This document shows, piece by piece, positions 2,014-45,886 of a stretch of 64,000 nucleotides of DNA. Under the pieces are notes generated by a model that searched no databases, was not told where the DNA came from, and saw only the letters and a list, made by a program, of their open reading frames with translations. How positions within the stretch are numbered: the first letter of the stretch is position 1; the number at the start of each line of letters is the position of its first letter. Both the position numbers and the translations under genes were made by a program. Source of the DNA: a virus. The stretch lies in IMG/VR virus record IMGVR_UViG_3300031867_000045, positions 1 to 64,000 of that record; one strand, written 5' to 3'.

Positions 2014-2015
2014 TA

Positions 2016-8190: not shown

Positions 8191-8312
8191 GCTTTTCGAG
8201 ATATTTACTGAATATCCCGATATTTTAACCGCATTTCCAGCGGCTCTTGACTACATTTAATATTGTAGCAAATCACCATTCAGTTGTCAAGTGTTTTCGA
8301 GTAATTTCTTAA
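8191..8312 (-). promoter_or_regulatory. promoter cassette: conserved motif, TTGACA-17 bp-TACAAT, hairpin, second motif copy, RBS (drives the SPFH gene)
   Basis: On the minus strand: AAGAAATTACTCGAAAACAC-TTGACA-17-TACAAT, then ccgctggaaatgcgg hairpin, then AAATATCTCGAAAAGCA followed by AAGGAG and ATG. Confidence 0.7.
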
Positions 8313-8320
8313 ATATTTTT

Positions 8321-9061: not shown

Positions 9062-10530
9062 TAGAAATCACCGCCGTGCAAAGTTTTTCTGATTTCTTTC
9101 AGACTGGTTTCTTTCAGCATTTCACCATCACGGAAAATAGGCTTTAACATATTGCAAGGATCATTACTTGCTTCTTCCCAAGTCTTTTGATCTGTATAAG
9201 CAATCCCGCCATAATAATCCTCATAAACAAGACAACAACCCTTTTGAGAAGTCTTGAATCCGCCCTCTTTCGGGTCTTTGAAAATGGGAGTAGGCTTTCC
9301 GTCAATCTCACAATATGTCGCCTTAATACAAGAACTGAAAGTATCACGAGTAAACGGTTTTAGAATCCCATCTTCTTCAATGCACTGGAATGAGAACGAA
9401 CCGACACCGAGAGATACATTACAAGCCGCAAATCCGTTTTCTTTGAGAATTTCATAAATCTTCTCGCAACGCTGAACGGTAATTGAATCACCGTACAGAG
9501 CTTTCACACGAGGATCGAGGACTTTATATCCCTTGCTATTAATATAACCGCCGAACTGATCCCATAACTTGAATACCGTCTTTGTTACGACTTCCACGCA
9601 ATCGCCGGAATCTCCGCGCATAAGCATACAACCATTATGGTTCATAATTTCCTTTTTGAGTTTCGGAAGTACGTTATCAATTACATTCCAGTAATCATAA
9701 GAATCCAAAACGCAAGAAAATGATGTATTCGGGTAAATCTCCGTCAACAGTCTGCGGAGCAAAGTAATTTCATCACCGTCAACCGCAAAATTAGAACACA
9801 TTACAGAATGTTCGGTACTCGGAGCGCCAAATCCAACAGGTTCATTTTTGCAATCACAATTATAATTCTTTTCCAAATACGGAATTGCGGGAACCGTTGC
9901 AGTATTCAAGAATGAAAGCAACCAACCCGCAGCCGCCTTCGTTGCAGACTGTAAACATTCCTCACCGCGAAAATCAAAATCTCCCAACGCTCTTGCTCTC
10001 GGCATATCGTCGTCACAGGTTTCAGCATAATACTTGTTCACGATTTCACGATAAGTTGCGCCGACGGTGGCAGCCAACATGGGGTGCCACATTTCAGCCG
10101 AGATCAGCGATTCAAGCGACTGAGGAAGCCATGCAAAATCGGGATGGGTATTTGTGATTCCGAACATCGGAACGTGCATAGGCACTTTCGTTCCTTCGGG
10201 CAACGCCACAATTTCAATGGGTAAATATCCGAGATTATGCAGTTTCTTGATTTTGTTGATATTATATGTATCTTTTCCAAGAGTGGCGTCCATGATTCTT
10301 TGATATTCAACCAAAATCAGGTCGAGGGGCTTTTCAAAAAATTCTCTGTTGAAGTAATCAATCAGATATTCCTTAATAAATCCCTGCAATCCAAAGAATA
10401 CAACTTCATTCCAGCGCTTTACTCTGCTCATTCTCGGAGTAAAATAAGATACCGATTTTGTGATCTTTTCCGGCAACATTTCAGCGTGTACCGCCTTATA
10501 GTAGTCGATCAATAACATCGGATTCGTCAT
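9061..10530 (-). CDS. nadV: nicotinamide phosphoribosyltransferase (NadV/NAMPT)
   Basis: 489 aa; NAMPT-like blocks (DSYDYWNVI, LMRGDSGD, GVGSFSFQ...TRDTF) and the right length. Confidence 0.75.
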   Translation of the reverse strand: MTNPMLLIDYYKAVHAEMLPEKITKSVSYFTPRMSRVKRWNEVVFFGLQGFIKEYLIDYFNREFFEKPLDLILVEYQRIMDATLGKDTYNINKIKKLHNLGYLPIEIVALPEGTKVPMHVPMFGITNTHPDFAWLPQSLESLISAEMWHPMLAATVGATYREIVNKYYAETCDDDMPRARALGDFDFRGEECLQSATKAAAGWLLSFLNTATVPAIPYLEKNYNCDCKNEPVGFGAPSTEHSVMCSNFAVDGDEITLLRRLLTEIYPNTSFSCVLDSYDYWNVIDNVLPKLKKEIMNHNGCMLMRGDSGDCVEVVTKTVFKLWDQFGGYINSKGYKVLDPRVKALYGDSITVQRCEKIYEILKENGFAACNVSLGVGSFSFQCIEEDGILKPFTRDTFSSCIKATYCEIDGKPTPIFKDPKEGGFKTSQKGCCLVYEDYYGGIAYTDQKTWEEASNDPCNMLKPIFRDGEMLKETSLKEIRKTLHGGDF

Positions 10531-11393
10531 AGATTAAACACCTCGATTTTAGATGGCATTAAGTCAATATCTTTCGCATACTTCTGCGTACTCTTGACAA
10601 AAATGCTATCTGTAGTATATAGTTTCTCGATTAAATCTCCGTGTAACAATTCACCACGAAAAACGGTAAATTCACAATGAGTTACAAATAGATATATCTT
10701 ATCCGCGCCGAGTTCTTTTAACTTCTTCGCAGAATGTAAGAATGTTCCGCCTTTACTGCAAATATCATCAATGATTAAAACTATTTTGTTTTTAATCAAA
10801 TTTGTATCTCCGCAAACATCAAGCCCAAGAATATTTCCAGTTTCCCAATCTCGCCGTTTGATACCAAAAGCGTATGGTCGATTGATCTTGCCGGAATACC
10901 GTTTCATGGCACCTTCATCGGGAAAGAATATCGTTGGATTTGTTATGTAATTATCCTTGCAAACATTCTTAATTGCCTGTTCGATATAGGGAGTAGGTTC
11001 CAAAACGGTCAAATTATCGAACAACGCTTCACTCACAGAAGAATGAGGGTCTAAGACAACCACATTCAAGAATTTCAGCGCATTGATAAATTCCGCAAAA
11101 TATTTCAAAGTGAAAACATCCGATTTTCCCTTTACCCTATCCATTCTGGCGTTCGGAATATACGGCAAGAATAGCTCAACATCATAACCCAATCTTTGCA
11201 GGTGTTTTGTCAGAAATAAGATTGCTGCCATTTCACCGTCATTCTCGTAATGCCATGAAATAGTCACGGATTCTTGAATAGGCTCGACAGACTTCAACTC
11301 GGGTTTCAAGTGCAAAGTTCCATCGGGAAAATGATCGAGGACAACTTCGTTTCCATCAATTTTAATCATTCTGTTACCTCGTCGATCTGGCAA
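10527..11393 (-). CDS. prs: ribose-phosphate pyrophosphokinase (PRPP synthetase)
   Basis: 288 aa; PRPP-binding loop IVLIIDDICSKGGTF and PRPP synthetase N-domain. Confidence 0.7.
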   Translation of the reverse strand: MPDRRGNRMIKIDGNEVVLDHFPDGTLHLKPELKSVEPIQESVTISWHYENDGEMAAILFLTKHLQRLGYDVELFLPYIPNARMDRVKGKSDVFTLKYFAEFINALKFLNVVVLDPHSSVSEALFDNLTVLEPTPYIEQAIKNVCKDNYITNPTIFFPDEGAMKRYSGKINRPYAFGIKRRDWETGNILGLDVCGDTNLIKNKIVLIIDDICSKGGTFLHSAKKLKELGADKIYLFVTHCEFTVFRGELLHGDLIEKLYTTDSIFVKSTQKYAKDIDLMPSKIEVFNL

Positions 11394-11929
11394 GAGTGCA
11401 TGACCATCTTAGCAGCGTTATGTAATTCGGGAGTCACACCCGCACAACAAGAGAAGTCACAAGCGATTTGGATTTCCGGCGCGGCTGTCTTGATAACCAG
11501 TGCGTTAGTCACTACACAAATATCGGTACACAATCCAACAAGTTCAACGTAATCGAATCCGCCCTGAACAACAGCCTGAGCCAATGCGAAAGAGCCGAAA
11601 GACTCCTTCAAGAAAACTCTTTTATCATCGTTGTAAGTGAATTTTTCGTTCTTCTCGGCAAGACGATCTCTGAAAGCCTTTTCAATGGTTGGATTCAACT
11701 GCCAACCCTCGGTATGTAAGATACAGTGTTTCACGGGCAAGTGTTTGCCCTCATTAGAATCGAGGTATGAGTCCTCAAAATGTGTGTCATATGTAGCCGC
11801 GATCTCACCGTCGAATGTTTTGATTTTTTCTGCAACCTTATCAACGATTGCCATAGCTTCGGGAGTTCCGAGAGAGCCGTCAATAAAATCGTTTTGACAG
11901 TCAACCACGACAAGTAAACGTTTTTCCAT
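11366..11929 (-). CDS. pncA: isochorismatase-family nicotinamidase (PncA-like)
   Basis: 187 aa; VVVDCQNDF N-terminal motif and catalytic-cysteine block GLCTDICV typical of PncA. Confidence 0.65.
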   Translation of the reverse strand: MEKRLLVVVDCQNDFIDGSLGTPEAMAIVDKVAEKIKTFDGEIAATYDTHFEDSYLDSNEGKHLPVKHCILHTEGWQLNPTIEKAFRDRLAEKNEKFTYNDDKRVFLKESFGSFALAQAVVQGGFDYVELVGLCTDICVVTNALVIKTAAPEIQIACDFSCCAGVTPELHNAAKMVMHSCQIDEVTE

Positions 11930-12099
11930 TTAATTCTCCTTAAAAACTCTAAAATAGCGCCGATCTGTTGATTTTATGCGATAATCTTCTTCATCTTGTG
12001 CCTCCTTGATTTTGACATACTATATATAGTGGTTATAATATTTTATACCACAATATCTTGTGCTAAAAAGTGAATAAAACAGCGATTTGATTCACTTTC

Positions 12100-12513
12100 T
12101 TAAAATCCGTTAAATCCATTCGGATTTCCGTTCATAATGTTGTCGTATTGGTTAATCAAATTCTGTAACTCAGGATCGCTTTTTGCCAACTCACGGTACA
12201 AAGAAAGATTACGATTTTCCTTAACATGCTTATCCATAGCCGTAACGAGCTTGTTAATTGTAGCAGTGTTTTCCTTTCTTCTGTTCCACGCAGAAAAATC
12301 CACCTTACAGATAATATCTTTTGTTGCGGCGACGCCAAAGTAATTGTTGGGTGAAATAATGTTCACCACTTTAGCTACAACAAAATCATTTGCGCTATCT
12401 GTAAGAACATAATCTCCGACACGGATATTTGTATCGTACAGCCGGAAAGCGTATTCCTTAGATGTGTTGAAGCCCCTAACAAAAGTCACCTTTGCGATTA
12501 AATAATGGTTCAT
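12100..12513 (-). CDS. hypothetical protein
   Basis: 137-aa ORF preceded by the conserved UTR motif and an RBS. Confidence 0.45.
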   Translation of the reverse strand: MNHYLIAKVTFVRGFNTSKEYAFRLYDTNIRVGDYVLTDSANDFVVAKVVNIISPNNYFGVAATKDIICKVDFSAWNRRKENTATINKLVTAMDKHVKENRNLSLYRELAKSDPELQNLINQYDNIMNGNPNGFNGF

Positions 12514-12607
12514 ATTCTTTTTCCTTTCTTTTGCTTTTCGAGTTATTTCTTGATTGCCTTGAAATAAAAACCGCAGGATCGCGGTCTTATTTCAAGTTCG
12601 ATTTTGA

Positions 12608-12684
12608 TGGTGTGCCATCAGGGAATCGAACCCTACACCTACAGATTATGAGTCTGTTGCTCTAACCGAATGAGCTAATGGCAC
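12608..12684 (-). tRNA. tRNA-Met or tRNA-Ile2 (anticodon CAT)
   Basis: 77 nt; anticodon stem acaga/tctgt, loop ctCATaa; T-arm taggg-ttcgatt-cccta; CCA encoded; followed by a GATC-loop hairpin and T-run. Confidence 0.7.
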
Positions 12685-15053: not shown

Positions 15054-16025
15054 TTATTTCGCAACTCCTTCGATTAAGCTCATAAACTCATTCATGGCTT
15101 CAATATGAATCGCAGGATCAGAATTTCCGGCGTTCTCTGCCCCACTCTGATAAACCATAGCAATAATATCACGCAGGTCTGCAACATCGAGCGTCATAAC
15201 GGGATTTGTAGATTCCGCAGTGAAATTTTCGCCGCCCTGAACGTGCCTATTATAGAAATCTCCAAAATCCTTGAAATACTGATCGACCTTGCTTTTTGTC
15301 AAGCCGATATATCTCTTGGTGGTTTTCGTATCGCTATGATTGTAAATGGTCTGCAAGAGTTCCATGCTGTCATAGTCATTCGGGTGCAGCATACGACTGA
15401 TCTTTCCGAAAGTCTTTCGTGTGCTGTGCGTTCCAATATTGTATTCAATCCCGCAATTTTCCGCTGCACGTTTCAGCGCTTTTCTCCAACCATCGGGAGA
15501 AAGAACGTTGCCTTTTCCAGTTCCCGAAAGCTGCATGAATACAAATCCGTGATAGTTTTCCGCAGATGGATCACAGCCCGTCTTTTCGAGATACAGATTA
15601 ATGGCGTCCTTGCAAGCCTGATTGATATAAGGATTCGCCAGTTTGTCGGTCTTGTCCTCTACGATTTCCATTAATTCCGTGCGAAATTTTCCGTTTTTCG
15701 GATTAAAGAAATGTTCCCATGTCAAGCTCAGAGTATCACCGACACGACGAGCCATATTCAAAGAAATCACAAACAGCATATAATGAAGCCATGATTTGTT
15801 TTCAATAAAGTAATTCATCATTTTCCGCAAATCCGCGACTTCAAATGCGAATACTTCCGACTTCTTGCCCTTCTGCTTGTTTTGCTTGATCTTCTTGGGC
15901 TTGCCGTCCTTACGAAGTTTCGGGGCATTTTCCGGCTGAGGATCAACAGGCATTTCGGTAAAGAAAGTCTGTCCGGGAAAAAGTGGTGATGTTACCATAA
16001 CGGTATTAGTCTGAATATTTTTCAT
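15054..16025 (-). CDS. int: tyrosine-type site-specific recombinase (phage integrase)
   Basis: 323 aa; box I ARRVGDTLSLTWEHF, box II/III HSTRKTF...LLQTIYNHSDTKTTKRYI (R-H-R-Y catalytic residues); basic N-terminal arm. Confidence 0.75.
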   Translation of the reverse strand: MKNIQTNTVMVTSPLFPGQTFFTEMPVDPQPENAPKLRKDGKPKKIKQNKQKGKKSEVFAFEVADLRKMMNYFIENKSWLHYMLFVISLNMARRVGDTLSLTWEHFFNPKNGKFRTELMEIVEDKTDKLANPYINQACKDAINLYLEKTGCDPSAENYHGFVFMQLSGTGKGNVLSPDGWRKALKRAAENCGIEYNIGTHSTRKTFGKISRMLHPNDYDSMELLQTIYNHSDTKTTKRYIGLTKSKVDQYFKDFGDFYNRHVQGGENFTAESTNPVMTLDVADLRDIIAMVYQSGAENAGNSDPAIHIEAMNEFMSLIEGVAK

Positions 16026-21238: not shown

Positions 21239-22243
21239 TTTTTTCTTGAAAAAAATGCTCAATAATTGAACACTTTTTCAGCCGATTTTGACGATAAAAT
21301 TACCATTTGATTTACATTGTTATTTGCTTAGTTTTTTATATATTCTTTCTCTATATTGGTTTACTTTCTTTTGGTATATATTTCCTTTGACCATATCCAA
21401 TATTCTCAAAGCATCATTATACCTCTTTCCAGAAATGTAAAGATCAACGAGCCTAAAAGTCCAGCTCATACTATCAAAGGCTAAACCGCCATTTTGAAAA
21501 ATCAATTCCCAAAAAGATGTGATTTTTTCGTAATCACAATCATTTTCATATTGTTCTTCCGCCTTATTGATTGCCTCAATTTGCATTTCTTGCAATACCA
21601 ATATTTGATATTGCCTCGGAGCAACCTCTTTAAATCTTTCTAATTCTGATTTATCTAATGGGAGTATTCTTTTTACTTTTTTACCAATATACATATTTCT
21701 TACCTCTTATATTCATAATTTTCCGCGCCGGTGATATACTTCTGAAAATCTACGCGAATCAAATCATCGTTTCCGATCTTTTTCACTCCGCTGCCGAATG
21801 CAATTCTTCCGTTTGCTCCGACAAAGTTAATTGTCTTGTTTCCATTCACCGCCATAATCTCGGCATAACATCTTTCTGTCGGCTTTGCGCCGTCGCAAAA
21901 GGTGAATCCCTCGTCCTCGGCAAGCTGCATAAACTTTTCGCCGATTGCCACGTTTGCAAGATATACATATACTCTGCCGTTTTTCTTGCTTAATTCTTCG
22001 ATTGTTCTCATTGATATTTTCCTTTCAAAATAGAATTTTCGTAAAATAAAATCCTATCTTAACCGATAGGATATATCTCACTCCTATCGGTCAAGCATTA
22101 CCACCTTGCCTATTTATCGTCAGATTTTCCGCAAATTGCCGATTGATATGGTAGGTTGGTGTACGGTCATCGGGCTTGCCCCTCGCGTACTCTATATAGG
22201 ACTTATTCTATTACTTATAGTATAGCCAGATTTTCCGGTATTG

Positions 22244-23425
22244 TCAAGCGGATTTCTTCATGTATGACAAAATTGCCTCGCTATGCTCGTCCTGCATTCT
22301 CATAGGAACGATCATACATTCATATTCTCCCTGCTGAATGTAAATCGGTTTCAAACTGTTATCCGATGTGATAACAATATGATCTTGAATTTTTGAATCG
22401 TTTTTCAGAACTCCCAAAATTCGGGACATGAAATGCGGATTGATCATCTTGACAAAATCCTCGGAGATTTCGCCGGTATGCTCCAAAATTTCCATAGTCT
22501 TGAATCTGCTTGTACCGAATCCAACGGTCAGATTGTCGCCGATCATGGCGATAATCGCGCCTTTACTCATATGAGAATCAATATCTGCAAATTCCTTGAA
22601 TGTTTCATACGCTGCCGGAATGTTCAATTTGAATCTCAAATTTTCCTCTTTGACGGGATCAATGGCAAGAGAGTAATCAAAAAATTCTCCCTCGGTCAGC
22701 ATAAAGGTGTATTCAAAATCTCCACCGACAAATGCGCCGTACTTTCCGTCCTCAGATACACGGATTTCGATTGTTTCCTTTGTCTTATAATCCACAATCT
22801 TTTTCAAATTTGTGAGATAGCCGGAATCAATGCCACGAATGAGCATACCGGAATAATCCTCTTTCACAAAATCCCATTCGACGTTTCTTTTCACCATGAT
22901 AAAACCATCACAAGTGACAATTACATGATGTTTCGGATCAAGGAAATATGACTGATATACCGGCTTATTCGGATTATCCGATAATCCCGCCGCTACGTTC
23001 TTGAATGTTTCCAGTAAATCGGATTTATCAACGCGGATCGCCGGTAATACTGCGGAATGCGCTTCGGGCATTTCCTTTTCATATCGGTCATTCTCGGCAA
23101 CCAGCTCGCATTTCTTCTTTCCGGTGCTGATAGTAAAATACTTTTCCTCGCTACATTCCACCATGAGCATACTGTCTTTTACCTTGATGTATTTCGTTTC
23201 ATTGTAGTTAATAAATGCAAAACCACCTTCGATGACGTTGGCGCCGGGAACGCTGATTTTCAAATGTTCGTCGATCTGCTGCGTTTCCATTGTAACGGTA
23301 TTTTCCACCTGATTCGCCGTGATCTTGATATACTCGAAAATCTGAATGCGTGTTTTCTTTTTCGCGATAACCGTTACACGATCCAGGGCGTTCATAAATT
23401 CCTTTGTCGGTACTGTAAATTTCAT
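22244..23425 (-). CDS. dnaN: DNA polymerase III beta subunit (sliding clamp)
   Basis: 393 aa; starts MKFTV and ends ...ECMIVPMRMQ, like bacterial beta clamps (MKFTVERE...YVVMPMRL); clamp-like length. Confidence 0.65.
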   Translation of the reverse strand: MKFTVPTKEFMNALDRVTVIAKKKTRIQIFEYIKITANQVENTVTMETQQIDEHLKISVPGANVIEGGFAFINYNETKYIKVKDSMLMVECSEEKYFTISTGKKKCELVAENDRYEKEMPEAHSAVLPAIRVDKSDLLETFKNVAAGLSDNPNKPVYQSYFLDPKHHVIVTCDGFIMVKRNVEWDFVKEDYSGMLIRGIDSGYLTNLKKIVDYKTKETIEIRVSEDGKYGAFVGGDFEYTFMLTEGEFFDYSLAIDPVKEENLRFKLNIPAAYETFKEFADIDSHMSKGAIIAMIGDNLTVGFGTSRFKTMEILEHTGEISEDFVKMINPHFMSRILGVLKNDSKIQDHIVITSDNSLKPIYIQQGEYECMIVPMRMQDEHSEAILSYMKKSA

Positions 23426-26014: not shown

Positions 26015-27250
26015 ATTGATAGCTCCTTTAGATAAAATATCATGTTTAGTATAACATATTTTCTTATAATTGCAAGGGATAGGCGGTAGTTAAACCGCCC
26101 AGCCCTGCGCTTTCCATTCCTCGATCACATCATAGCCATCATGGTACTTTGTGATGATTTCATCGTCCCATGAATAATAACCGTTCATATACTCGGTTAA
26201 ATCGTTAATGATCTTTTGCGGCGCTTTCTTATACTTATTCAGCCACCAGATATAATTGACGATCTTCTCAGTCGAAAACTCAGGATAACCACCGGCGACA
26301 TGACGATCAATGTTTTCTTTGATTCTGATAACCTTGCGCAATATTCCATTTTTGATCTGTTGCTTCTTTGCCATGATCTTGCCCCCTTGATTATCTTACA
26401 AGTCAATTATACTATATCATTTTAGTAATGTCAATACTTTTCGAGAAATTTCCCGAATTATTTTTTGCGGGCTTGCTTTCCGATCTGCTTCCAGTATTTT
26501 CGGCGTGACTTCTGATCCTTTAACTGCATAGCCCTCATGTTATGCTTTTTAAAATCGTCAATAGGCGGATTTGACGGCGTTGCTTTTTGGATAATACCGT
26601 ACACCGCCCAAACAAGCAAGATTAAAAAAACCACCACCAACCACATTGAATCACTCCCTCACAATCTCGTCCAATTTTTCAATAATGCCATTTGCGCCAT
26701 GAAGAACGCCCAAGGATTCCAGATCGTATATCAAGCCGATCAACTGACTATATGCCCTGCTGCCGGTCTTTGTAAAGTAATTATAATGCTTCTCGCCGTC
26801 ATAATCAATACATTCGATTGTTGGATTTTTCAAAAACGGTTTATTGCAACCAAAATATTCTTTTAAAATCTCGTCAAGTGCTTTCATGTGATCCTCCTTA
26901 AATTGTATTGTAGAAGATTTCCCGATACTCCGGTAATTTTTCTTTGATCGGTCTTTTATCGTTTAATGCTTTGATTAAATCGCTCGTTTTTAAAGTATCA
27001 AGGATTTTAAACCATTGATTTTGAGCGGGTAGCTGCTCAAATTTAAAGGCTTGATCTGCTCGCCTGTCTTTTGCTTCCCTCTCGATTCTCTCGATAATAT
27101 TGGCGGGCATTTTATCCTTTGAAATATACCATGTGATCCTGCCGCCGTCTGAGATATGCGCTACTGTAGGATAATCATTATTGATCTTGACCGCTACATT
27201 ATAAGCTGTGATCCCGTTGCCAAAGAATCCAAAGTGAATATCATATTTTG

Positions 27251-27592: not shown

Positions 27593-27699
27593 CTTTTCGA
27601 GTAATTTCTTGTAATGGATTTAACTTTAGGCGGATCGCCCGCCTTTCGATTACATATAGATTATAGCATATCATTTTAGTAATGTCAATACTTTTTTAA

Positions 27700-27896
27700 A
27701 AAAAGTTTTAAAAAGTAAAAATGTGCGCCTTTTGTGTCCGACTGGATATAAAAGCGCACCACATTACTATATATATAAATATATTATATACTATACATAA
27801 CTTATTATTACCGTATATATAGTAATGTGATTATATATTAATTACTATACATTACTTATAGTAATTATATATTATATACTTATATATGCGATTTTT
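27700..27896. repeat. AT-rich array of 29-bp palindromes (TAATTACTATA-N7-TATAGTAATTA and variants), copy A
   Basis: ttactatacattacttatagtaa and related palindromes; the array ends tatatgcgattttttt; a near-copy lies at 38760-38960 in the same orientation. Confidence 0.6.
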
Positions 27897-28238
27897 TTAA
27901 TTGTGTGAAATGAAGAAGTGAAACATATCGCGGAACACTTGCGCAAAATTCCGACCGGCTGCCTTTTGATCGTCCAGGTACTCAATAATTTTTCGATCTT
28001 CTTCGCTGTTTTGCCGTAGATTTAAAGTGTATGTTTTATAGTTTTGTTTATTCCATTCTGATGTATGTTTTGTGTGCTGCTTTTTGCGCTGCTCGATAGT
28101 TTCCTGACTTGTTTCTAATTCGTAACAGTCACGATGAAAATAACGATTTCTGTACGGTGTTACATAGTCCTCTTTATCAATGTTGATCTTGCCGCCGTGT
28201 AGACAATTTTTACATCTACATACCTTGATATTATCCAT
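27897..28238 (-). CDS. zinc-finger protein (possible DNA-binding regulator)
   Basis: 113 aa with CRCKNCLHGG...YFHRDCY zinc-ribbon and a basic region; adjacent to palindrome array A. Confidence 0.4.
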   Translation of the reverse strand: MDNIKVCRCKNCLHGGKINIDKEDYVTPYRNRYFHRDCYELETSQETIEQRKKQHTKHTSEWNKQNYKTYTLNLRQNSEEDRKIIEYLDDQKAAGRNFAQVFRDMFHFFISHN

Positions 28239-31513: not shown

Positions 31514-33997
31514 GGTATACTCTCCTTTGTTTTTCGAGATATTTCTTGTAATCCGCGCTGTTTTGTGGATCGCTCTCTTGATTACATATAAAGTATACCA
31601 TATCATTTTAGTAATGTCAATACATTTTTAAAAAATATTTATTACATGTTTGTAATTATTTCTTCCATTCATCACACCAATTATAAATCGTATTGTTGTT
31701 TGTTCCGTGTTCACAACAATGATTATATAACTGTGTGATAAAATCTCTTTCGATATCTGCACCGGTTATGTTCATATAATCTAACATACCCATTAGATAT
31801 ACAAGTCTATATCCTTCTGTAATGTTTAATAACTTTCCTATGATCCTGCGCTGCCTATCGTTCATTGTAAACCTCCGAAAAGTAAATCAAATTAGTTTTT
31901 TATCGTCATTAACTATCCCAATTATGAATATATTTCTCTTTATAGAATCCGGCGTGATATGCCGATAATTTACCGATATATGCGTCAAGCTCATGCTCTC
32001 CGCCGCTGCCATGATAAAATCCGATCACACTTGTTTCTAAATCTTCGCCCGTTCTCCGATCCAACATGATGAAAGTCAAATCCGTGTCCGGTGCATACGT
32101 TGTATATACTTTGTATTCTCTGATGATCTTCTCTCCGGCAATCATTCCGCCGTGTGTTTCAACCTCGGTAATAATACCATATTGTACTTTTTCCAGTAAA
32201 CCGTTATTTGCTTCGGCTCCGTCACGCACCATATCCAGTAAATCATTGACCGCCTCAAAATCATCGGAATATGTGTCGCTGATTGAATTTCCAAATACTG
32301 TTTCCACTTCAAGATTATAGTGCTTCATGCTGATTCCTCCTATTCTATAACCATGAATCCAGTGTAAAGGCTTCTGTTGATCTTGACCGGATAATCCTCG
32401 ATAAAGTGATGACTTGCGCCTGATTTTCCGTAAAAGCCCTTGATATGCTCGATATTCTTCTCATTTATCGTGTCCGGCGTCGCTTTGCCGATTAAACCAA
32501 CAACAACCGGATTTGCGCCGATCTCTGATACTCTTTGAAAACGTCCTGCAATATTCATGTTATTTCCTCCTTAACTGAAAACGATATATTCTCCGCCGAT
32601 TCTGCCGATCAAATCCAAAATGCGGATAACGTCTTGACCGGATTCAATCGCGTTATTGACCTTCTTCAAATTTTCCTCTGTGCCATTAAATACCATATCA
32701 CAATGGAAATTATATATCTTGTCCGTGATCTCGACTATGCCCTCATGTGCTTTATATCCGACCGCTGCGGGATAGAACATCTTATAGGTTTTAATAAGCT
32801 CGATTGCCGTGCAATTCAAAAGATTGTTTGCTTCCGGCATTCCGTTATATTCCCATATTGAAAATGCCTGATTATAGTCTGCTTTCGCTCTCTCTAATCT
32901 CTTTTCTATTGTCATTGTTATTCTCCCTTTTATGCAATTCTACGGCTGCCAGGTCTGTACTTGTATAGGGTCTTTTCTGCTTCTTCAAATGTGTTAAACC
33001 GCTGCGCTGTTGCTACTCCGTCCGGATTATCCGCCGTGACCTGCTTTTTGATCTGAAATTTATGATTCGGCAATTCAACGATCTTTGCATAGATTGTATG
33101 ACCTTTTTTATATGTTTTATATACTGCTGATATTGTGATCCTCCTTAGATGAATAAATGTCTAAAATAGGGCTTTGCTTCGGTAAATGTGATATATCTGT
33201 TGTGAATTTCCGCCGTTTCCTTTGCCATGCTCATATCGGCGCATACCGTGTAGATGTTGACCGTTCCGACCGCTGCCGATTCAGTTTTGTATACTGCCGG
33301 AATTTCGCTTGTCCTGCTGCTCTTGAATGTTCCGGCTGTATAGATGTTTACCCTCTTGATCCGCGGGCGACTTTTCAATAATACGGCTTCCGCCGCTTCG
33401 TATGTGTTAAACTCTCCGCTGGTTGTTACGCCGTATGGATTCCGCTTGTCGATCCCGTATGTGATACAAAATCCGCGATTCTCGATATACTTGATCTCGT
33501 ATAACTCCGCCGTGTTATCGTGTTTATAGATTGCCATGATTATACCCTCGCTTCATAACTTCTAAATGGATCGGTAAAAGAATTAACATAATGATAGCAA
33601 TAAACCATATGATTTAATACTCCGTAAATTCCGCCCTTGATAGCTTCCTTTACTTTCCGCGCGGCTTCCGTCCTGCTGATTCCGTCATGCCACATGACCG
33701 TCTTGATATATTCCGATTTAGTATAAAACAGTTTATTGCTTTTCATGCCGTGACCCTCCTTGTTTCCTTTGCTTTACGCCATGCGGCTCTGATTTCCGCC
33801 CGCGCTTCTTCGCTCATTTCATATAAATGTGTTCGGCTTCCCATGCCCCATATCTGCATTTTATAGCCTTTATCGCGGGCAACCTGTCGCGCTGCCGTGC
33901 CGCCGTCAATCTGTATTCCTTGATACATGATCCCGCCCTGCTTGTCCGTCAAGATGACGAATACATTATTATTATTTTTCATCGTTTCCGCCCTCTC

Positions 33998-34444: not shown

Positions 34445-34595
34445 TTCGTTTCCCTCGCTTTTCGAGTAATTTACTGATTAATATTGATTTGTTGGCGGGA
34501 TTTCCGGCTCCCGCCCTGCCTGATCTGTTGTATATATCTTATCACATATATTTAGTAATGTCAATAGCTTTTCGAGATATTTCTTGAATTTTTTT
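34445..34595 (-). promoter_or_regulatory. full promoter cassette (motif, TTGACA-17 bp-TAAGAT, gggcgggagccggaaatcccgcc hairpin, motif, RBS)
   Basis: On the minus strand: TTCAAGAAATATCTCGAAAAGCTA-TTGACA-ttactaaatatatgtga-TAAGAT, hairpin, AAATTACTCGAAAAGCG-AGGGAAACGAA-ATG. Confidence 0.65.
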
Positions 34596-37226: not shown

Positions 37227-37622
37227 TTAGATGAATTGAATATCTGATTCGGTAATTTCTACCATAACAGATTCTTGATTCAATTCGGTTTTAATATCAC
37301 TAACCATATCATGCAAGGATTCGATCATGCTATCGCTTGCAATTTCAACGCGGATTGACGGCTCATTAACAATGTTACCGGTAGATTGCATTTTGTAATA
37401 GCCGTTACATTCGATCATCGTAAAAGCGAAAATATCATAGACATTTAATAAGATATTAGCTATAATATTTTTTGCGGATTCAGTGCCGATCTTTTGTGAT
37501 TCAGTGTCCTTATCGAATAAACCGATTGTTAATACTGTTTTTGTCATTGTAATTACCTCCTGATTTGATTGCTTTTTGATTTCGAGTATTTTCTTGATTG
37601 CAAGGCTATTATATAATATCAT
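37227..37622 (-). CDS. hypothetical protein, first gene of the leftward block
   Basis: 131 aa; preceded by TTGACA-17 bp-TATAAT, the motif and an AGGAGG RBS (37575-37640). Confidence 0.45.
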   Translation of the reverse strand: MILYNSLAIKKILEIKKQSNQEVITMTKTVLTIGLFDKDTESQKIGTESAKNIIANILLNVYDIFAFTMIECNGYYKMQSTGNIVNEPSIRVEIASDSMIESLHDMVSDIKTELNQESVMVEITESDIQFI

Positions 37623-37640
37623 TTTAGTATTGTCAATAGA

Positions 37641-38970
37641 TTATTTAAACTTTTTTGATGAATTATTGCATTTTGGCGGATTGCACAAACCAACATGATA
37701 TTACTTGTATAATTTGCACAATGCCGGGATCGTGCTGCTATTACTGGATATAGTATTATATATTATACTTATTATATACCACAATATTATATTGCTATAA
37801 AAGAATATTACATACTGTAATATGATATCGGATCAATTACTATTTGTATATTTTATTATTCTATAATAGAATATTGTATAGTCCTGGATCATGCTTATTA
37901 TTCTATTGTAGAATTATAATTTTGTGGGATAAAGTACCGTTTATTGGACTTTGTTTGTATTGAGTACAATAAATTGGACTTTGTAAAGTACATTATTGCG
38001 ATGATATAACTTTAATTGTGATGATTAAATTTGATTGAATTGTGATTATTTTTGATTAAATTTGAGGGAATTTGACTGAGTTTGCTTTTAGGTGTAAAGC
38101 ATTTTACTTTACACCTCTCGAAAAATCTGAAAATCCTTTATTTCTTTTAAAGCATAATAATTTCATAGAATCCATCGGGATCATGCTACAATTCCAAAAT
38201 GTGAATAAAACATTTATTTGATGACTATATTGTAATTCTGTTTTTTGCACTATTACAGAATTAAAGCCCAAAAATTGAGCATTTATACTACTTGCCTACT
38301 TGATAGGTAGGTAGGGGGTAGGTTTACATCTCGAACATCTGTTCGAGCCGGATGCCGGTTTTAATGTGCTCCCCTCTACTCTCACCTCAAAATTTAAATC
38401 CCCCTTACCTGTTCAATTTTTGAACACTCACCGAAAATTACAGTCAACAATTAAAGGTGTTCAATAATTGGTACTTTTTCTGAAAATTAGTCGTTTATCG
38501 AAAACGCAAAAAATTTATTAAAGTGTTCAATAACTGATACTTTTTTGGTGAAATTTTCGACGTACCGAAAACTGAGTAAAAATCCCGCAATTTTTCGTTT
38601 TTATAAAAGCTCAGTTTTTGAACAAAAATATTTTAAGGTAAACGATCAAAACAATCGATCATGGTGGTTTCGAGATAAAAGTTGCGGAAAATTGATGAAA
38701 ACATTTCGGTAATTTTGCTCCGAAATTCTGGTAAGCAACCCGAAAAATCATTCCGAAAATTACCTTAAAACGAAACTGCGACCGCAACTTAATCTATTTA
38801 CTATATACTATACGTTACTTATATAATTACATTGTATATAGATTAAGTAAAGTATATAATTACTATACATAACGTATAGTAAATAATAATTACTATAAGT
38901 AATGTATAGTAATTAATATATATATAATATATATACCTATTTATATGCGATTTTTTAGATCAATTTAAAC
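37641..38970. promoter_or_regulatory. large non-coding divergent control region with several repeat families (candidate replication origin or regulatory hub)
   Basis: No ORF of 60 aa or more. Three copies of GGGATC(G/A)TGCT-type sites (about 37725, 37883, 38173). Perfect inverted repeats ggtgtaaag/ctttacacc and tcgaaca/tgttcga. Two ~32-nt direct repeats (gtgttcaataa-tg-tactttttt) at about 38456 and 38520. At least 8 CCGAAAA repeats at 38400-38760. Palindrome array B at 38760-38960. Confidence 0.5.
38760..38960. repeat. AT-rich 29-bp palindrome array, copy B
   Basis: aattactatacataacgtatagtaa and aattactataagtaatgtatagtaatta; ends tatatgcgatttttt like copy A. Confidence 0.6.
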
Positions 38971-38974
38971 TTAT

Positions 38975-39025
38975 TCAAGAAATATCTCGAAAAGACTTGA
39001 CAACCGAGGAAATATGCTCTACAAT
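38975..39025 (+). promoter_or_regulatory. rightward promoter cassette (motif, TTGACA-17 bp-TACAAT)
   Basis: TCAAGAAATATCTCGAAAAGAC-TTGACA-accgaggaaatatgctc-TACAAT, followed by aacctgcgggattgcaggtt hairpin, then GAGG RBS and ATG at 39085. Confidence 0.7.
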
Positions 39026-39084
39026 GAATATTAGAACATTAAATCAAACCTGCGGGATTGCAGGTTCTTTTATTTGAGGTGTTT

Positions 39085-40234: not shown

Positions 40235-43048
40235 TTGGAGCAAAAAAGCTGTCATCGTCTTGTTTATAAGATTGACAGTTCAATGTTAAAGAGGGCAAAT
40301 TGGAAGCTCAATTTATCACTTCAAACCGCCATGAGAACTTGCCCCGATGTTATTGTTGCACTGAACGATAGCCAGTGTTTGAGATTCATTGATGAAATCA
40401 ATGGCGTCGCAGATGTCAATAATAAAGTTCGAGCTATCCAAAACAAAATCAAAAAAATAAAGAAGAAGCCGAAAAGCAGAGAGAATCTTAAACTGATTAA
40501 CTGCTATTACGAAACTCTTTATGGTTTACAATTTCAGCGCGACTATATCAGCGTTGTAATGAATAGCAAAGAAGACTATGATCGGGCTAATTTAGGGTTC
40601 TCAATAAATTATGGCTTAATTGACAATAAAGAGTGTATTATTCATTACCGCCGTTTTTTAGGCACGAACGGCGGTATCAAGAAATCCACTATTGTATATG
40701 TCAATGAACAAATCTATACAGAGTTGAAACGCCGACTTGATAATGGCAGAAATCCAAACGGAGAATTTGTACCTGCAAAATTAGAAGCCTATCAAGGTTT
40801 GATTTGTTCTGGTTCCATTCCTCTCCCATCTCCAAAAGGAGTGATTGTCGTTAGAGATTGTATCACCCATTTTAAGGAAGATGTTATACTAATTGATGAC
40901 AGTGGAGAAGGCGAACCAAAATTAACATACGAAGACAATTATGAAATTGAACATAATGATTCTGATGGATATGGGTTAATGACACCGGAATATTCACGTG
41001 TTGTTAATAATTTTCTTTGCGGAGAGGATAAACCGATTTCCGGAATGAATACTCGTTCTGCATTTACTAAGGGTATGCTTTACACCTTTGATTTTAAAGA
41101 ATTTGCAGAAAAGATAGCAGGTACTTTTGAGGTCGAGGACGTATGGGGAGATAAGCGCGATATCCGAGATGCCGATGTAATACTCACGGAATCCATGCTC
41201 AAATTGTGGTCAAGTTATGATAGTTGGGAAGATTATCTTGAAAATTGCAAAAAAAACAATTATCACTTGTCGGCAACAAAGACTACTCCCGATCAATTAG
41301 AAAACGTCCGAGATACGAACTATCAATTTTTGCAATCGTATGAGTTTTCAGACGATGATCTGTATAATTTGTGTTTGCCGACCATCAAAGAAATTAAGGA
41401 TGTAATTGGTTTAGACTACCGTAAAAGTTTAACGTTTCTTGCCGGATTCGGTTTAGACGACAATACAGCATTTAGTCAAAACCTTAATTCATATATTAAG
41501 GCATTGATGGTTGAGCCTAAATTAATCAATGATCCGTTTATCCGAAAGAAAATATACCATATGATTCGTAAACGAATTGAAATGGGTGAGCGTGGCGCAA
41601 TTCGTATTAAGGCGAATTACGCTATGATAAGTGGTGATCCATACGCACTTTGCCAGTCTATTTTTAATCTTACCGTTACAGGATTGTTAAAAGCAGGAGA
41701 AGTATATCACAAATATTGGATTGATCGCGGTTCGGATGAAATAGCTTGTTTCCGTGCTCCGATGACGTGTCACAATAATATCCGCAAAATGAAACTCTCG
41801 CGCTCACCCGAAGCTGCTTATTGGTATCGTTACATTGATACGGCACTGATCTACAATGCGTGGGATAGTTCATGCGAGGCTATGAACGGCGCGGATAAAG
41901 ACGGCGATACTAATATGTGTACCGATGATCCAATTATTGTTCAAAACACAAAACCACTTCGGACAATAATTTGTTTACAGAAAAACGCAAAAAAAATCAT
42001 TCCTACCGAGGAATCTATTATTGAAGCAAATAAATTAGCTTTTAATGATGAAATCGGAGAAGTAACGAACCGAGTTACAAGCATGATTTGTATTGCCGAT
42101 GGTTTTCCAAAGGAATCAGAAGAATATAAGGTTTTGCAATACCGCATTATGTGTGGTCAGTTATTCCAGCAAAATACAATAGACCGAGCAAAAGGTATTA
42201 TTTCAAAATCCATGCCCGTTCATTGGTATTCAATGCGAGATAATCTTATCGGAGAAGATGATAATGAGGAATCAAAAGCAAAAAAGATATTCAATCAAAA
42301 AATTGTTGCTTCTCGGAAACCTTATTTTATGGGATATGTTTATCCTAAACTTCGTGCTGAAAATAATACTTACATTAAAAATAATACTTTAGGTGCAATT
42401 CGCCGCTTTAGTGAATTTGGTATTAATGATATTACCGATTTGATTTCATATGAAAACCCAACTCCTGAAATGAAGGAATATTTGGATTACTACAATAAGC
42501 TGACGCCAGTTGATAATAATAAATGTGTTATTAATCGAATTGCATGGTTATTTGAATCAGAGTTCAAAACGTTTATGTCGGATTATTCAAGAAAGATACG
42601 CGAGTCAGATAATTGCATATTTGATTATAGAATCATGAAATCCGGCGTTGAATATAGCCAGTTGCAGTATGATAAAATATCGGAAATATACAAAGAGTAC
42701 CAACTAAGGACTAAAGAATACCGCAAAGAATCTCGAATCAAAAAGGTCGAGAAGTATGACAATATCGAGCAACACATGATTTTGGTAAATTTCTTTAAAC
42801 GAGAGTGTGAGGAAATTTGCCCGAATGAATATGAATTATGTGATATTCTTTTGGATATGTGCTATCAAGCGGAAACTTCAAAACAATTTGTATGGGATAT
42901 GTGCGGAGATACTATCCTTCAAAATCTTTTAAAGAAACATGATTATGAATTAACATATCCTAAACTGGTTTCCGATCAAGGTGAATTTGAATATTGCGGA
43001 GAACAATTCATTATGCAGAAAACGCGAATCGAGGTGATTGATGTATGA
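40235..43048 (+). CDS. large protein (937 aa) with a NADFDGD-like motif; candidate non-canonical two-barrel RNA polymerase (YonO/QDE-1-like)
   Basis: TTG start 9 nt after AGGAG. The motif AMNGADKDGDTNM resembles the metal-binding NADFDGD loop of multisubunit RNAP beta-prime, YonO, and the DYDGD of QDE-1. No other polymerase family motif (PolB, primase) is evident. Confidence 0.35.
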   Translation: MEQKSCHRLVYKIDSSMLKRANWKLNLSLQTAMRTCPDVIVALNDSQCLRFIDEINGVADVNNKVRAIQNKIKKIKKKPKSRENLKLINCYYETLYGLQFQRDYISVVMNSKEDYDRANLGFSINYGLIDNKECIIHYRRFLGTNGGIKKSTIVYVNEQIYTELKRRLDNGRNPNGEFVPAKLEAYQGLICSGSIPLPSPKGVIVVRDCITHFKEDVILIDDSGEGEPKLTYEDNYEIEHNDSDGYGLMTPEYSRVVNNFLCGEDKPISGMNTRSAFTKGMLYTFDFKEFAEKIAGTFEVEDVWGDKRDIRDADVILTESMLKLWSSYDSWEDYLENCKKNNYHLSATKTTPDQLENVRDTNYQFLQSYEFSDDDLYNLCLPTIKEIKDVIGLDYRKSLTFLAGFGLDDNTAFSQNLNSYIKALMVEPKLINDPFIRKKIYHMIRKRIEMGERGAIRIKANYAMISGDPYALCQSIFNLTVTGLLKAGEVYHKYWIDRGSDEIACFRAPMTCHNNIRKMKLSRSPEAAYWYRYIDTALIYNAWDSSCEAMNGADKDGDTNMCTDDPIIVQNTKPLRTIICLQKNAKKIIPTEESIIEANKLAFNDEIGEVTNRVTSMICIADGFPKESEEYKVLQYRIMCGQLFQQNTIDRAKGIISKSMPVHWYSMRDNLIGEDDNEESKAKKIFNQKIVASRKPYFMGYVYPKLRAENNTYIKNNTLGAIRRFSEFGINDITDLISYENPTPEMKEYLDYYNKLTPVDNNKCVINRIAWLFESEFKTFMSDYSRKIRESDNCIFDYRIMKSGVEYSQLQYDKISEIYKEYQLRTKEYRKESRIKKVEKYDNIEQHMILVNFFKRECEEICPNEYELCDILLDMCYQAETSKQFVWDMCGDTILQNLLKKHDYELTYPKLVSDQGEFEYCGEQFIMQKTRIEVIDV

Positions 43049-44162: not shown

Positions 44163-44239
44163 GCGGATATGGTGTTCAACGGTTAGCACGTTGGCTTGCC
44201 AAGTCAAAAGTACGAGTTCAAATCTCGTTATTCGCTCCA
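44163..44239 (+). tRNA. tRNA-Gly (anticodon GCC)
   Basis: 77 nt; anticodon loop ttGCCaa; T-loop ttcaaat; CCA encoded; acceptor identical to the minus-strand tRNA-Gly(TCC). Confidence 0.65.
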
Positions 44240-44311
44240 TATAAGACACACGCAGCAATTATTCAGAATAATTTTTGCGGTTAAAAAATATTCATGGTGT
44301 CTTGTTCTTAT

Positions 44312-44388
44312 TGCGGGATGGAGCAGATGGTCAGCTCGTCTGCCTCATAAGCAGAAGGTCGTGGGTTCGAGTCCCACTCCCGCAACCA
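44312..44388 (+). tRNA. tRNA-Met or tRNA-Ile2 (anticodon CAT)
   Basis: 77 nt; D-stem gagc/gctc; anticodon stem tctgc/gcaga, loop ctCATaa; T-arm gtggg-ttcgagt-cccac; U1-A72. Confidence 0.6.
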
Positions 44389-44404
44389 CTAATTTAATCA
44401 ATAT

Positions 44405-44489
44405 GGGAGAATCGTATAGCGGCAATTACGGCAGACTGTAAATCTGTTCCCGTAAGGGTTCGATGGTTCGAGTCCATCTTCTCCCACCA
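44405..44489 (+). tRNA. tRNA-Tyr (anticodon GTA), long variable arm
   Basis: 85 nt; anticodon stem gcaga/tctgt, loop ctGTAaa; long variable arm; T-arm gatgg-ttcgagt-ccatc; CCA encoded. Confidence 0.65.
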
Positions 44490-44492
44490 TAT

Positions 44493-44569
44493 GCTTGTGT
44501 AGCTTACGAGGTCGGAGCATCGGTCTGAAAAACCGAAGGATGGTGGTTCGATACCACCCTCAAGCACCA
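44493..44569 (+). tRNA. tRNA-Phe (anticodon GAA)
   Basis: 77 nt; anticodon stem tcggt/accga, loop ctGAAaa; T-arm ggtgg-ttcgata-ccacc; CCA encoded. Confidence 0.6.
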
Positions 44570-44572
44570 TAT

Positions 44573-44648
44573 GGTTCCGTAGTTCAAATGGATAAAACAC
44601 CGCCCTGTCACGGCGGAGTTATGGGTTCAATCCCCGTCGGAATCGCCA
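44573..44648 (+). tRNA. tRNA-Asp (anticodon GTC)
   Basis: 76 nt; anticodon stem ccgcc/ggcgg, loop ctGTCac; T-loop ttcaatc; CCA encoded. Confidence 0.65.
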
Positions 44649-44651
44649 AAT

Positions 44652-44726
44652 GTAGGTGTAAGTCAACGGTAGACGGCTTGCTTTGGGAGCAAGTAGCTGG
44701 GGGTTCGAGTCCTCTCACCTGCACCA
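44652..44726 (+). tRNA. tRNA-Pro (anticodon TGG)
   Basis: 75 nt; anticodon stem cttgc/gcaag, loop ttTGGga; T-loop ttcgagt; CCA encoded. Confidence 0.6.
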
Positions 44727-44776
44727 AACAGAGTTCGGCACGCCTCTGAATATGCGTACCATGCCGAGCCATATAT

Positions 44777-44852
44777 TCCCACGTAGTTCAGTTGATAGAA
44801 CTCTCGACTGTTAATCGAGTAGTCGCAAGTTTGAGTCTTGCCGTGGGAGCCA
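44777..44852 (+). tRNA. tRNA-Asn (anticodon GTT)
   Basis: 76 nt; anticodon stem ctcga/tcgag, loop ctGTTaa; CCA encoded. Confidence 0.55.
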
Positions 44853-44855
44853 AAC

Positions 44856-44930
44856 GGGGGATTAGTTTAATAGGTAAAATCCTCGCCTTGCACGCGAGGG
44901 TCAGCGGTTCGAGTCCGCTATCCTCCACCA
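44856..44930 (+). tRNA. tRNA-Ala (anticodon TGC)
   Basis: 75 nt; anticodon stem ctcgc/gcgag, loop ctTGCac; T-arm agcgg-ttcgagt-ccgct; CCA encoded. Confidence 0.65.
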
Positions 44931-45038
44931 AATACATAAACAGGACAAGGAGTAATTAACCTTTCTCGGTGCTGCTACACCGAGATTACTGTTTGTGTAT
45001 AGAATAAATAGACAAATTTTAGCAGAAAGGAGTTTATT

Positions 45039-45794
45039 ATGATAGGAATATATAAATTTACAAACAAATTAACAGGCAAATCTTATATCGGACAAAGTAG
45101 AGATATACATAAAAGATACATTCAACATAAATGTAGGCACGAAATATGTTTACACGAAGATGCGCCAAAAGAAGATACATACTTCCATTCAATGCTTAGA
45201 CATTATGGATTTCATAATTTTGATTTTGAAATTTTAGAAGAATGTGAAATATCGGAATTGAACGAAAAGGAAGTTTATTATATTCAAAAATACAACACTT
45301 TATATCCGAATGGTTATAACAAAGATAAAGGTGGAAACACACCTCATCCTAATGCACTTAAATCTTATGAAGATGTTGATGAAATAATAGAACTGTTAAA
45401 AACAACAAAACTTTCAAATATCGAAATTGGAAACAAATATGGAGTATCAGACCAATCAATTTCAGATATAAACAATGGTAGGACTTGGATAAGAGATGAT
45501 ATTAAATATCCAATCCGAAATACATTTGAAGCAAAAAAGATTATTTGGAAATGTAATTCATGTGGGAAAGTATTATCTGGTAAAACCAAAAGCGGATTAT
45601 GCAGAAGTTGTTTGAATAAAAACATACAGGATAATTCTTCTATGCCTGATAAAGAAATATTATATAATTTATTATTACAATATTCGTTTACTTATGTGGG
45701 TGATAAATTTGGAGTTACCAGTAACGCTGTAAGAAAATGGTGTGACAAATATAATATCCCACGACATTCTTCATATTACAAAAATGTTGCTTAA
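45039..45794 (+). CDS. GIY-YIG homing endonuclease (I-TevI/Seg-like) with C-terminal zinc finger and HTH
   Basis: N-terminal GIYKFTNKLTGKSYIGQS...R...YFHSML..G..NFDFEILE...NEKEVYYIQKYNTLYPNGYN is a textbook GIY-YIG core; C-terminal CNSCG...CRSC zinc finger; sits inside the tRNA cluster. Confidence 0.75.
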   Translation: MIGIYKFTNKLTGKSYIGQSRDIHKRYIQHKCRHEICLHEDAPKEDTYFHSMLRHYGFHNFDFEILEECEISELNEKEVYYIQKYNTLYPNGYNKDKGGNTPHPNALKSYEDVDEIIELLKTTKLSNIEIGNKYGVSDQSISDINNGRTWIRDDIKYPIRNTFEAKKIIWKCNSCGKVLSGKTKSGLCRSCLNKNIQDNSSMPDKEILYNLLLQYSFTYVGDKFGVTSNAVRKWCDKYNIPRHSSYYKNVA

Positions 45795-45812
45795 TACCCG
45801 CAAGGGTAATAT

Positions 45813-45886
45813 GCTGAAATAGTATAATGGTAGTACCGCGGATTTGTAACCCGCTAATCTGAGTTCGACTCTCAGTTTCAGCTCCA
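45813..45886 (+). tRNA. tRNA-Thr (anticodon TGT)
   Basis: 74 nt; D-stem gtat/gtac; anticodon loop ttTGTaa; T-arm ctgag-ttcgact-ctcag; CCA encoded. Confidence 0.6.

Follow-up and report, generated by a model that had tools for sequence, protein, structure and literature searches.

Two matched palindrome arrays with TA-rich tracts at the borders of the early gene block in a YonO-encoding SPbeta-like phage

Two regions of the 64,000-nucleotide stretch of viral DNA analyzed here (the window) carry TA-rich palindromes, and they raise two related questions: (i) is the resemblance between them more than a matter of base composition and (ii) if so, what acts at these sites. The palindrome arrays at the two loci are real and non-random, as a first-pass annotation had proposed, but their copies, orientation and limits differ from its description. 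We favor, tentatively and with a probability of roughly 40%, a reading in which the arrays would be binding-site clusters for one phage-encoded dimeric DNA-binding protein and would mark the borders of the early gene block.

The window comes from a large gut siphophage of the SPbeta/c-st/Enterocloster-phage group (SPbeta/YonO-type), and megablast matched its 26-30 kb region to no GenBank phage. Gene orientation is leftward as far as 37.6 kb and rightward from 39.06 kb, where the genes include an operon with a YonO-like single-chain RNA polymerase. Genes for YonB, YonD, YonJ and an HU-like protein are found after those for the terminase and portal. Small leftward genes between 27.9 and 37.6 kb form an early block, and the two arrays lie at its outer borders, array 1 on the left and array 2 on the right (Table 1). 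The cumulative GC skew turns at 37-39 kb and has its minimum at array 2 and the strand switch; because gene orientation flips at the same place, the turn is ambiguous as a sign of an origin.

Table 1. Window coordinates of the arrays and of the features around them
Feature	Position	Strand	Details
Promoter, consensus sigma-A type	27660-27688	-	TTGACA-17-TATAAT with TG; faces away from early block
Terminator-like hairpin	27723-27757	-	GC stem and T-run between array 1 and the next promoter; read from sequence
Array 1, nested inverted repeat	27760-27829		16-nt outer arms CACATTACTATATATA (27760-27775) and TATATATAGTAATGTG (27814-27829), 38 nt between
Array 1, copy 1	27839-27867		perfect 29-bp palindrome; spacer CATTACT
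Array 1, TA-rich tract	27868-27897	+	ends in tail TATATGCGATTTTTT
113-aa protein gene	27897-28238	-	Cys/His-rich N-terminus; conserved helix and ribbon-helix-helix-like C-terminal domain
Non-coding control region at strand switch	37623-39058		1.4 kb; position matches SPbeta yonR-yonP (pac) region
Third TA-rich block	37740-37900		upstream of first leftward promoter (37608-37636); not significantly palindromic
Array 2, degenerate half-sites and inverted repeats	38795-38856
Array 2, copies 2 and 3	38857-38915		adjacent, 30 bp apart, jointly a 59-bp palindrome
Array 2, TA-rich tract	38916-38956	+	ends in tail TATATGCGATTTTTT
First rightward promoter-like site, sigma-A type	38997-39025	+	TTGACA-17-TACAAT; heads yonO operon
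YonO-like single-chain RNA polymerase gene	40235-43048	+	operon
Large terminase gene	51105-52988
Portal gene	53004-54599

The arrays share a 29-bp palindrome, TAATTACTATA-N7-TATAGTAATTA, which is perfect in copies 1 (27839-27867) and 3 (38887-38915) and has one mismatch and the spacer CATAACG in copy 2 (38857-38885); 0.01 matches to the pattern are expected in shuffles of the whole window. Array 2 thus bears out the two to three copies per array annotated at first, with two canonical units plus degenerate ones, but array 1 has only one canonical 11-7-11 unit. With one mismatch allowed, each array contains six to seven half-sites, and 9 of the 12 TTACTATA octamers in the 64-kb window fall inside the two arrays, against 2.7 expected. 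The nested repeat of array 1 also encloses further TACTATA/TATAGTA half-sites. The arrays proper begin at ~27760 and ~38795, rather than at 27700 and 38760 as first drawn, and the common ending noted at the outset is exact in both (27883-27897 and 38942-38956). Read from the strings, copies 1 and 3 are exact reverse complements of each other, asymmetric spacer included, and the longest word common to both arrays, of 37 nt, is also inverted. The same orientation initially assigned to the two arrays therefore describes the tail and the overall layout, which are direct, but not this word or copies 1 and 3. The 30-bp interval between copies 2 and 3 fits spacing by helical turns, for which array 1, having a single canonical unit, offers no pair. 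The TA tract points toward the promoter at array 2 and away from it at array 1.

To judge these features we shuffled the arrays themselves 1000 times while preserving dinucleotide content. A palindrome with 11-nt arms turns up in 2.7-5.1% of these shuffles and, because such arms arise by chance this often (3-5%), a lone palindrome counts for little. What is non-random is the sequence sharing between the arrays: a 29-mer shared between them occurs in 0 of 1000 shuffles, where the maximum is 22. Folded as single-stranded DNA, arrays 1 and 2 give z values of -5.1 and -3.7, and the third TA-rich block gives -1.3. Simple low-complexity AT sequence without conserved half-sites, the outcome that would have undone the original proposal, is not what the sequences show. 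A search for further copies, suggested at the same time, found none in the same phage within ~10 kb to the left and ~7 kb to the right of the window. Exact searches with the window palindrome in IMG/VR, JGI metagenomes and GTDB genomes returned single chance matches only, Rfam gives no match at the arrays, and DnaA boxes are neither clustered nor enriched there.

Protein look-up located the same phage in the ENA assembly ERZ27256863 and in the Logan assembly SRR9036512, and array 1 is identical in both. The ENA contigs cross both arrays in the window arrangement and break at ~31.5 kb, and the Logan unitigs end exactly at the shared palindrome, so that the shared repeat accounts for contigs that stop at the arrays. 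No inverted or deleted junctions are seen in ERZ27256863 or SRR9036512, a small set of samples represented by assemblies only. The suggestion that direct repeats might cause deletion of the intervening block is weakened accordingly, since the best-conserved unit is inverted and the assemblies of these two other samples keep the window arrangement.

The small gene placed beside one array by the first-pass annotation does abut array 1, and it is the last gene of the early block. On the minus strand, its stop codon is followed by array 1, a hairpin with a T-run, a promoter and the next gene, which puts array 1 in a transcribed 3' region ahead of a terminator-like hairpin; a simple terminator scan missed this hairpin because its loop is 16 nt long. 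Both arrays face outward-reading promoters, in opposite relative orientation. An RNA role for the arrays is unlikely, with array 2 upstream of its promoter and array 1 in a 3' untranslated region.

The promoter beyond array 1 is one of five in a conserved early-promoter family, all on the minus strand (26389-26454, 27643-27708, 31575-31640, 34519-34584 and 37591-37656), which have ~66 nt in common. The -35 to -10 spacer of this family, TACTAAAATGATAT, hardly varies and, if the SPBRE element of SPbeta considered below is a guide, could serve as an operator in its own right. It is at the 31.6-kb copy of this promoter that the ENA contigs of the same phage break.

Array 2 occupies the stretch 40-200 bp ahead of the yonO-operon promoter, which begins 40 bp past the array; its position upstream of the first rightward promoter was thus correctly recognized. 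The 1.4-kb region around it contains no ORF longer than 55 aa and carries a conserved motif, GGGGTAGGTTTACAT, together with many other repeats. Counterparts of this control region (window 37623-39058) are found at 7100-8100 of relative L003 and 5300-6260 of relative L174. Its contents include three G/T-rich repeats TGATTAAATTTGATTGAATT, a palindrome TCGAACATCTGTTCGA, a C-rich arm and many CCGAAAAT-like repeats, and the conserved non-coding region may hold a pac site or a small RNA. Past the yonO-operon promoter and ahead of the first gene, at 39047-39066(+), is a GC-rich hairpin and T-run that may act as an attenuator or leader structure.

Packaging in SPbeta-like phages is by headful, and their genomes open at a point (pac) situated between yonR and yonP (bioRxiv 10.1101/2021.11.22.469490; PMC8270828). 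The homologous region of the SPbeta-like phage Goe12 has a motif, GGGGTAnnTTTACAT, and the C-rich arm in common with the window and L003, and is without a palindrome array. PhageTerm places the pac of PMBT24 9.6 kb upstream of yonO, within a non-coding region of its own that has TA blocks on either side (PMC11035940). We rejected the arrays as a promoter for YonO itself because the SPbeta YonO start site maps elsewhere, downstream of yonO and upstream of yonK (PMC5467207).

Comparison with relatives, recovered through the YonO gene as 34 IMG/VR loci, shows which of these features are retained. At the array-2 position, ~16 relatives have lineage-specific palindromes or tandem units followed by a TA-rich or (TA)n tract, and this block lies 0.1-0.3 kb upstream of a yonO-operon TTGACA...TATAAT promoter. 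Position and architecture are thus conserved across ~16 lineages, and the palindrome sequence turns over quickly. Half-sites are separated by 0, 1, 4 or 7 nt depending on the lineage, there are up to 13 units per genome, and unit orientation flips freely within arrays. Tails like that of window array 2 occur in L036 and L003.

No relative has a second copy in the 10 kb upstream of yonO, but farther out, at a distance of 9-11 kb, a matching second array is found in two. Contig 2593339225_000003 carries three copies of the unit AATTAAGAATAGTCTTAA at the yonO-proximal site and, 9-9.7 kb to the left, two arrays of five copies each, spaced at 29-31 bp and with common flanks. The closest relative (YonO 83% identical) has its second block 10.9 kb to the left, with a palindrome, CACAATACTATATAG-N10-ATATATAGTATTGTG, that is a homolog of the outer one in window array 1, and its gene, array, hairpin and promoter follow one another as they do in the window. 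Pairing is not universal, because the palindrome of L035 and L023 occurs once per contig in an exact search. A search with a 16-nt relative-specific pattern gave more than 120 matches, mostly by chance, and revealed relative L106, five units of which are 29-31 bp apart; a search for related loci with the clamp-like protein (22244-23425) found nothing, and the region upstream of yonO in the c-st phage is too rearranged for comparison.

Two further features of the yonO neighborhood were observed in these genomes. Enterocloster phages have a near-perfect palindrome of ~240 bp with TA-rich direct-repeat flanks just upstream of yonO (L158 11880-12130, CB473P1; L166 9050-9300, PMBT24), and GenBank records of the CB473P1 type start and end inside the adjoining TA tract. 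The YonO match itself spans 3.3-4.1 kb or two to three ORFs in L014, L017, L020, L023 and L035, in c-st (NC_007581, 164.4-167.5 kb) and in OP172755 (245-3838), which suggests introns, inteins or insertions in the RNA-polymerase gene.

The best candidate for a protein that binds the arrays is the 113-aa product of the gene beside array 1. The annotation had nominated it as a zinc-finger protein, and it is a reasonable candidate, but by virtue of its conserved C-terminal part: the Cys/His-rich N-terminus is unique to this phage and modeled with low confidence, and the conserved part models as a ribbon-helix-helix (RHH) domain, with ParR of pB171 among its best structural matches. More than 400 small proteins, without a Pfam family, make up the family to which residues 45-113 belong. 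In the window, a protein of predicted RHH fold is therefore encoded with an array, and the three genomes with paired arrays all have homologous genes beside the distal array. However, an RHH gene followed by an array was found in only three of eight lineages examined, and in L004, L005, L006, L175 and L177 promoters only, and no array, come after the RHH gene. The strand residues of the RHH domain do not track the array motif cleanly (L004 and L011 have the same motif and a different strand), and no locally encoded protein was found to be unusually conserved between lineages that share a motif. The parS-like character also proposed for the arrays finds no counterpart in the gene content, as no partition NTPase (ParA, ParM or TubZ) was detected among ~35 window proteins scanned with Pfam, PHROGs and NCBIfam or among the Pfam labels of flanking loci.

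Matched, lineage-specific and phased palindromes at conserved positions indicate sites for a co-evolving, sequence-specific protein. As we picture it, an early protein, most plausibly the RHH protein of the last early-block gene, would bind the palindromes cooperatively on units about three helical turns apart, with the flexible TA-rich tract allowing the DNA to wrap or bend. Complexes at both borders would then set the activity of the neighboring promoters at 27688(-) and 38997(+), perhaps by bridging the two arrays, and expression would shift from the early block to the flanking operons, the yonO operon being driven from 38997(+). Both the identity of the binder and the choice among repression, activation and insulation are things that we infer. 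Sites for a dimeric regulator or iteron-like sites, as first suggested, are favored by the conserved position, the ~30-bp units and the matching arrays. Two features sit awkwardly with regulation: a simple repressor would be expected closer to the -35 element than the palindromes, which are 80-230 bp upstream of it, and an operator has no need of the TA-rich tract that invariably accompanies them, a feature more in keeping with an origin.

Lambdoid iterons co-vary with their O proteins, and oriL and oriR of SPP1 are two origins served by one initiator. By this comparison the arrays could be replication origins of the lambda/SPP1 type, a possibility we regard as real but on the unlikely side, in which palindromic iterons would bind an initiator and the adjacent TA-rich tract would melt, one initiator serving two origins with possible help from transcription at the strong promoters. 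Repeated units beside an AT-rich tract are found in both arrays and in most relatives, and nearly all lineages keep the order of palindromes and then TA tract although the palindromes themselves differ in sequence. Several arrays with the same unit occur per genome, array 1 is in a transcribed 3' region before the terminator-like hairpin, and array 2 is at the GC-skew minimum and strand switch, although the skew and gene-orientation switches are confounded. Nothing contradicts such a role, as SPbeta-like replication is uncharacterized (PMC8270828). It would be better placed, however, if an initiator, replisome organizer, DnaD-like or Rep-like protein were among the scanned proteins beside the arrays; Pfam and PHROGs identify none, a weak negative because many neighboring proteins have no annotation. 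Unclustered DnaA boxes and the opposite direction of the TA tract relative to the promoter at the two arrays also count against origins. A packaging function is less probable still, whether the arrays mark long-terminal-repeat ends, with the same nuclease or terminase recognizing each border and the ~11-kb early block thereby present in duplicate at the ends of virion DNA, or array 2 is an accessory pac site. T5, SPO1 and Twort-like phages duplicate an early block at their virion DNA ends, and the terminal repeats of T5 and SPO1 hold small early genes behind strong promoters, as does the block between the arrays. The yonR-yonP pac region of SPbeta-like phages is the counterpart of 37.6-39.06 kb and has motifs in common with it, the PhageTerm pac region of PMBT24 is flanked by TA-rich blocks, and contigs and GenBank records of several relatives end in or near the TA block. 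Yet SPbeta-like phages and PMBT24 package headfuls from pac rather than exact long repeats, the PMBT24 pac is not at its yonO-proximal TA block, and the homologous region of Goe12 is without such arrays; contigs that end at arrays are accounted for by the shared repeat, and the ENA contigs run through both arrays and break elsewhere (~31.5 kb).

The geometry of the 29-bp palindrome invites comparison with site-specific recombination, as core sites of the dif/lox/FRT type have inverted arms of 11-13 bp and a 6-8-bp spacer, and the 11-7-11 arrangement is of this kind. If the palindromes were core sites for a tyrosine recombinase, exchange between copies 1 and 3, which are inverted and identical through the 7-nt spacer, would invert the 11-kb block, either as a switch or to redirect a replication fork, as Flp does on the 2-micron plasmid. 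A Phage_integrase-family protein at 15054-16025(-), the only protein of tyrosine-recombinase fold in the window, keeps the R, K, HxxR, H and Y residues as judged by eye, but its gene is 12 kb away. The geometry is not conserved, since relatives have spacers of 0-4 nt, up to 13 units per genome and units that flip freely within arrays, and assemblies of the two other samples contain the window arrangement only, so we hold recombination to be very improbable. We give marginally less credence even than this to arrays with no function of their own, which would have arisen as low-complexity TA-rich sequence by slippage, or as a duplicated intergenic segment kept similar by gene conversion. A single palindrome with 11-nt arms in 3-5% of composition-matched shuffles, a third block that is TA-rich without significant structure and the rapid turnover of array sequences between relatives are all compatible with such an origin. 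The 37-nt word common to the arrays (0 of 1000 shuffles) is not, nor are the position and architecture kept in ~16 lineages despite sequence turnover, the regular 29-31-bp phasing of units in one relative or the identity of the arrays in independent samples.

Carried to its fullest extent, the binding-site reading would make a broader proposal, to which we attach a low probability. YonO-encoding SPbeta-like gut phages would bracket their immediate-early block with two matched, fast-evolving arrays of palindromes and TA tracts, bound by small RHH proteins of an undescribed family that has more than 400 members and no Pfam family. Bridging would loop the early block into a temporal switch, closing down early transcription and activating the operon of the phage RNA polymerase; alternatively, inverted core sites would let a recombinase flip the block or redirect forks to form concatemers.

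Several other features of this genome were noted along with the arrays. The window contains 19 tRNA genes, including a predicted suppressor tRNA with anticodon TTA, and a full-length tmRNA gene (Rfam 90.7 bits), at 285-357(-), 1236-12684(-), 44163-45886(+) and 4240-4692(-) taken together; the suppressor tRNA and tmRNA may point to stop-codon reassignment or manipulation of translation. Genes for a Tpt1/KptA-type RNA 2'-phosphotransferase and a Thg1-like protein among the tRNA genes (668-1213(-); L180 8015-8776) suggest a tRNA repair or maturation module. Beside the tRNA cluster there is a weak GIY-YIG match at 45039-45794(+), and further right lie a metallo-beta-lactamase/beta-CASP protein with a weak anti-Pycsar Apyc1 label (46112-47554(+)) and, after it, a ClpP-like protease (47566-48183(+)). 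Genes for NAD synthetase, nicotinamide phosphoribosyltransferase and ribose-phosphate pyrophosphokinase stand in a row at 8321-11393(-) and form an NAD+ salvage module of the kind linked to countering NAD-depleting defense. A SAM riboswitch at 22051-22202(-) scores 49.6 bits, above its gathering score, within the phage genome, and the first leftward early gene (37227-37547(-)) has weak, sub-threshold matches to S-adenosylmethionine lyase (E 0.0017). The tyrosine recombinase at 15054-16025(-), also listed at L183 11966-13018, combines a basic, very short N-terminus with ~80 additional aa at the C-terminal end, and has no sequence match in the PDB. A second, canonical integrase, with a SAM-like N-terminal domain and a catalytic domain, is encoded among tail genes just past the right end of the window.

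The arrays provide a conserved and easily recognized landmark by the phage RNA-polymerase operon, with a member of a large unannotated protein family as candidate binder, and they explain why assemblies of these phages break at this point. If they prove to be origins or packaging signals, they would help to fix genome ends and the start of replication in metagenomic phages.

Iteron- or operator-like arrays are a known kind of element; the paired arrangement is a variant for which, as for the associated protein family, a literature search found no description. The closest parallel within the same phage group (homologs of YonO, YonB/D/J and terminase) is the master repressor of SPbeta, MrpR (YopR), whose 15-bp binding site, SPBRE, is found at ten early promoters. 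The yonP promoter, that of the yonP-yonO operon, is one of them and carries an MrpR operator (PMC10516654). Like the arrays, SPBREs are repeated elements in early promoter regions, including yonP-yonO, which is the array-2 position. Unlike them, SPBRE is a single 15-bp motif distributed over about ten promoters, whereas the arrays consist of multi-copy 29-bp palindromes with a TA tract at two loci, with the palindromes set well back from the -35 element, and no MrpR-like protein was detected in the window. With respect to pac, array 2 is in the intergenic region homologous to that between yonR and yonP of SPbeta-like phages, and repeats flank a central segment; in contrast, SPbeta-like Goe12 is without such arrays, array 1 is 11 kb from the pac-like region and pacL and pacR of SPP1 have no similarity to the arrays. 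The window palindrome resembles dif, loxP and FRT in its 11-bp inverted arms, its asymmetric 7-bp spacer and the identity of that spacer in two sites, but differs from them in that its units are multi-copy, their geometry is not conserved and no recombinant junctions are seen.

RHH systems (ParR-parC of pB171, R1 and pSK41, omega of pSM19035, ParG, CopG and Arc/Mnt) have an RHH protein encoded beside a helically phased repeat array near promoters, as is predicted here. Their centromere members come with a partition ATPase, for which we found no counterpart, and these systems have short direct iterons upstream of the operon, whereas the window units are long palindromes, array 1 is downstream of the gene and the adjacency holds in some lineages only. 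The origin of lambda and oriL and oriR of SPP1, which are bound by G38P, have an initiator at the origin, whereas the arrays have no recognized initiator nearby and are not inside an initiator gene. In their organization, however, these origins and the arrays are alike: phage-specific inverted-repeat units stand in tandem beside an easily melted AT-rich tract and, as in SPP1, two distant clusters of the same unit occur in one genome.
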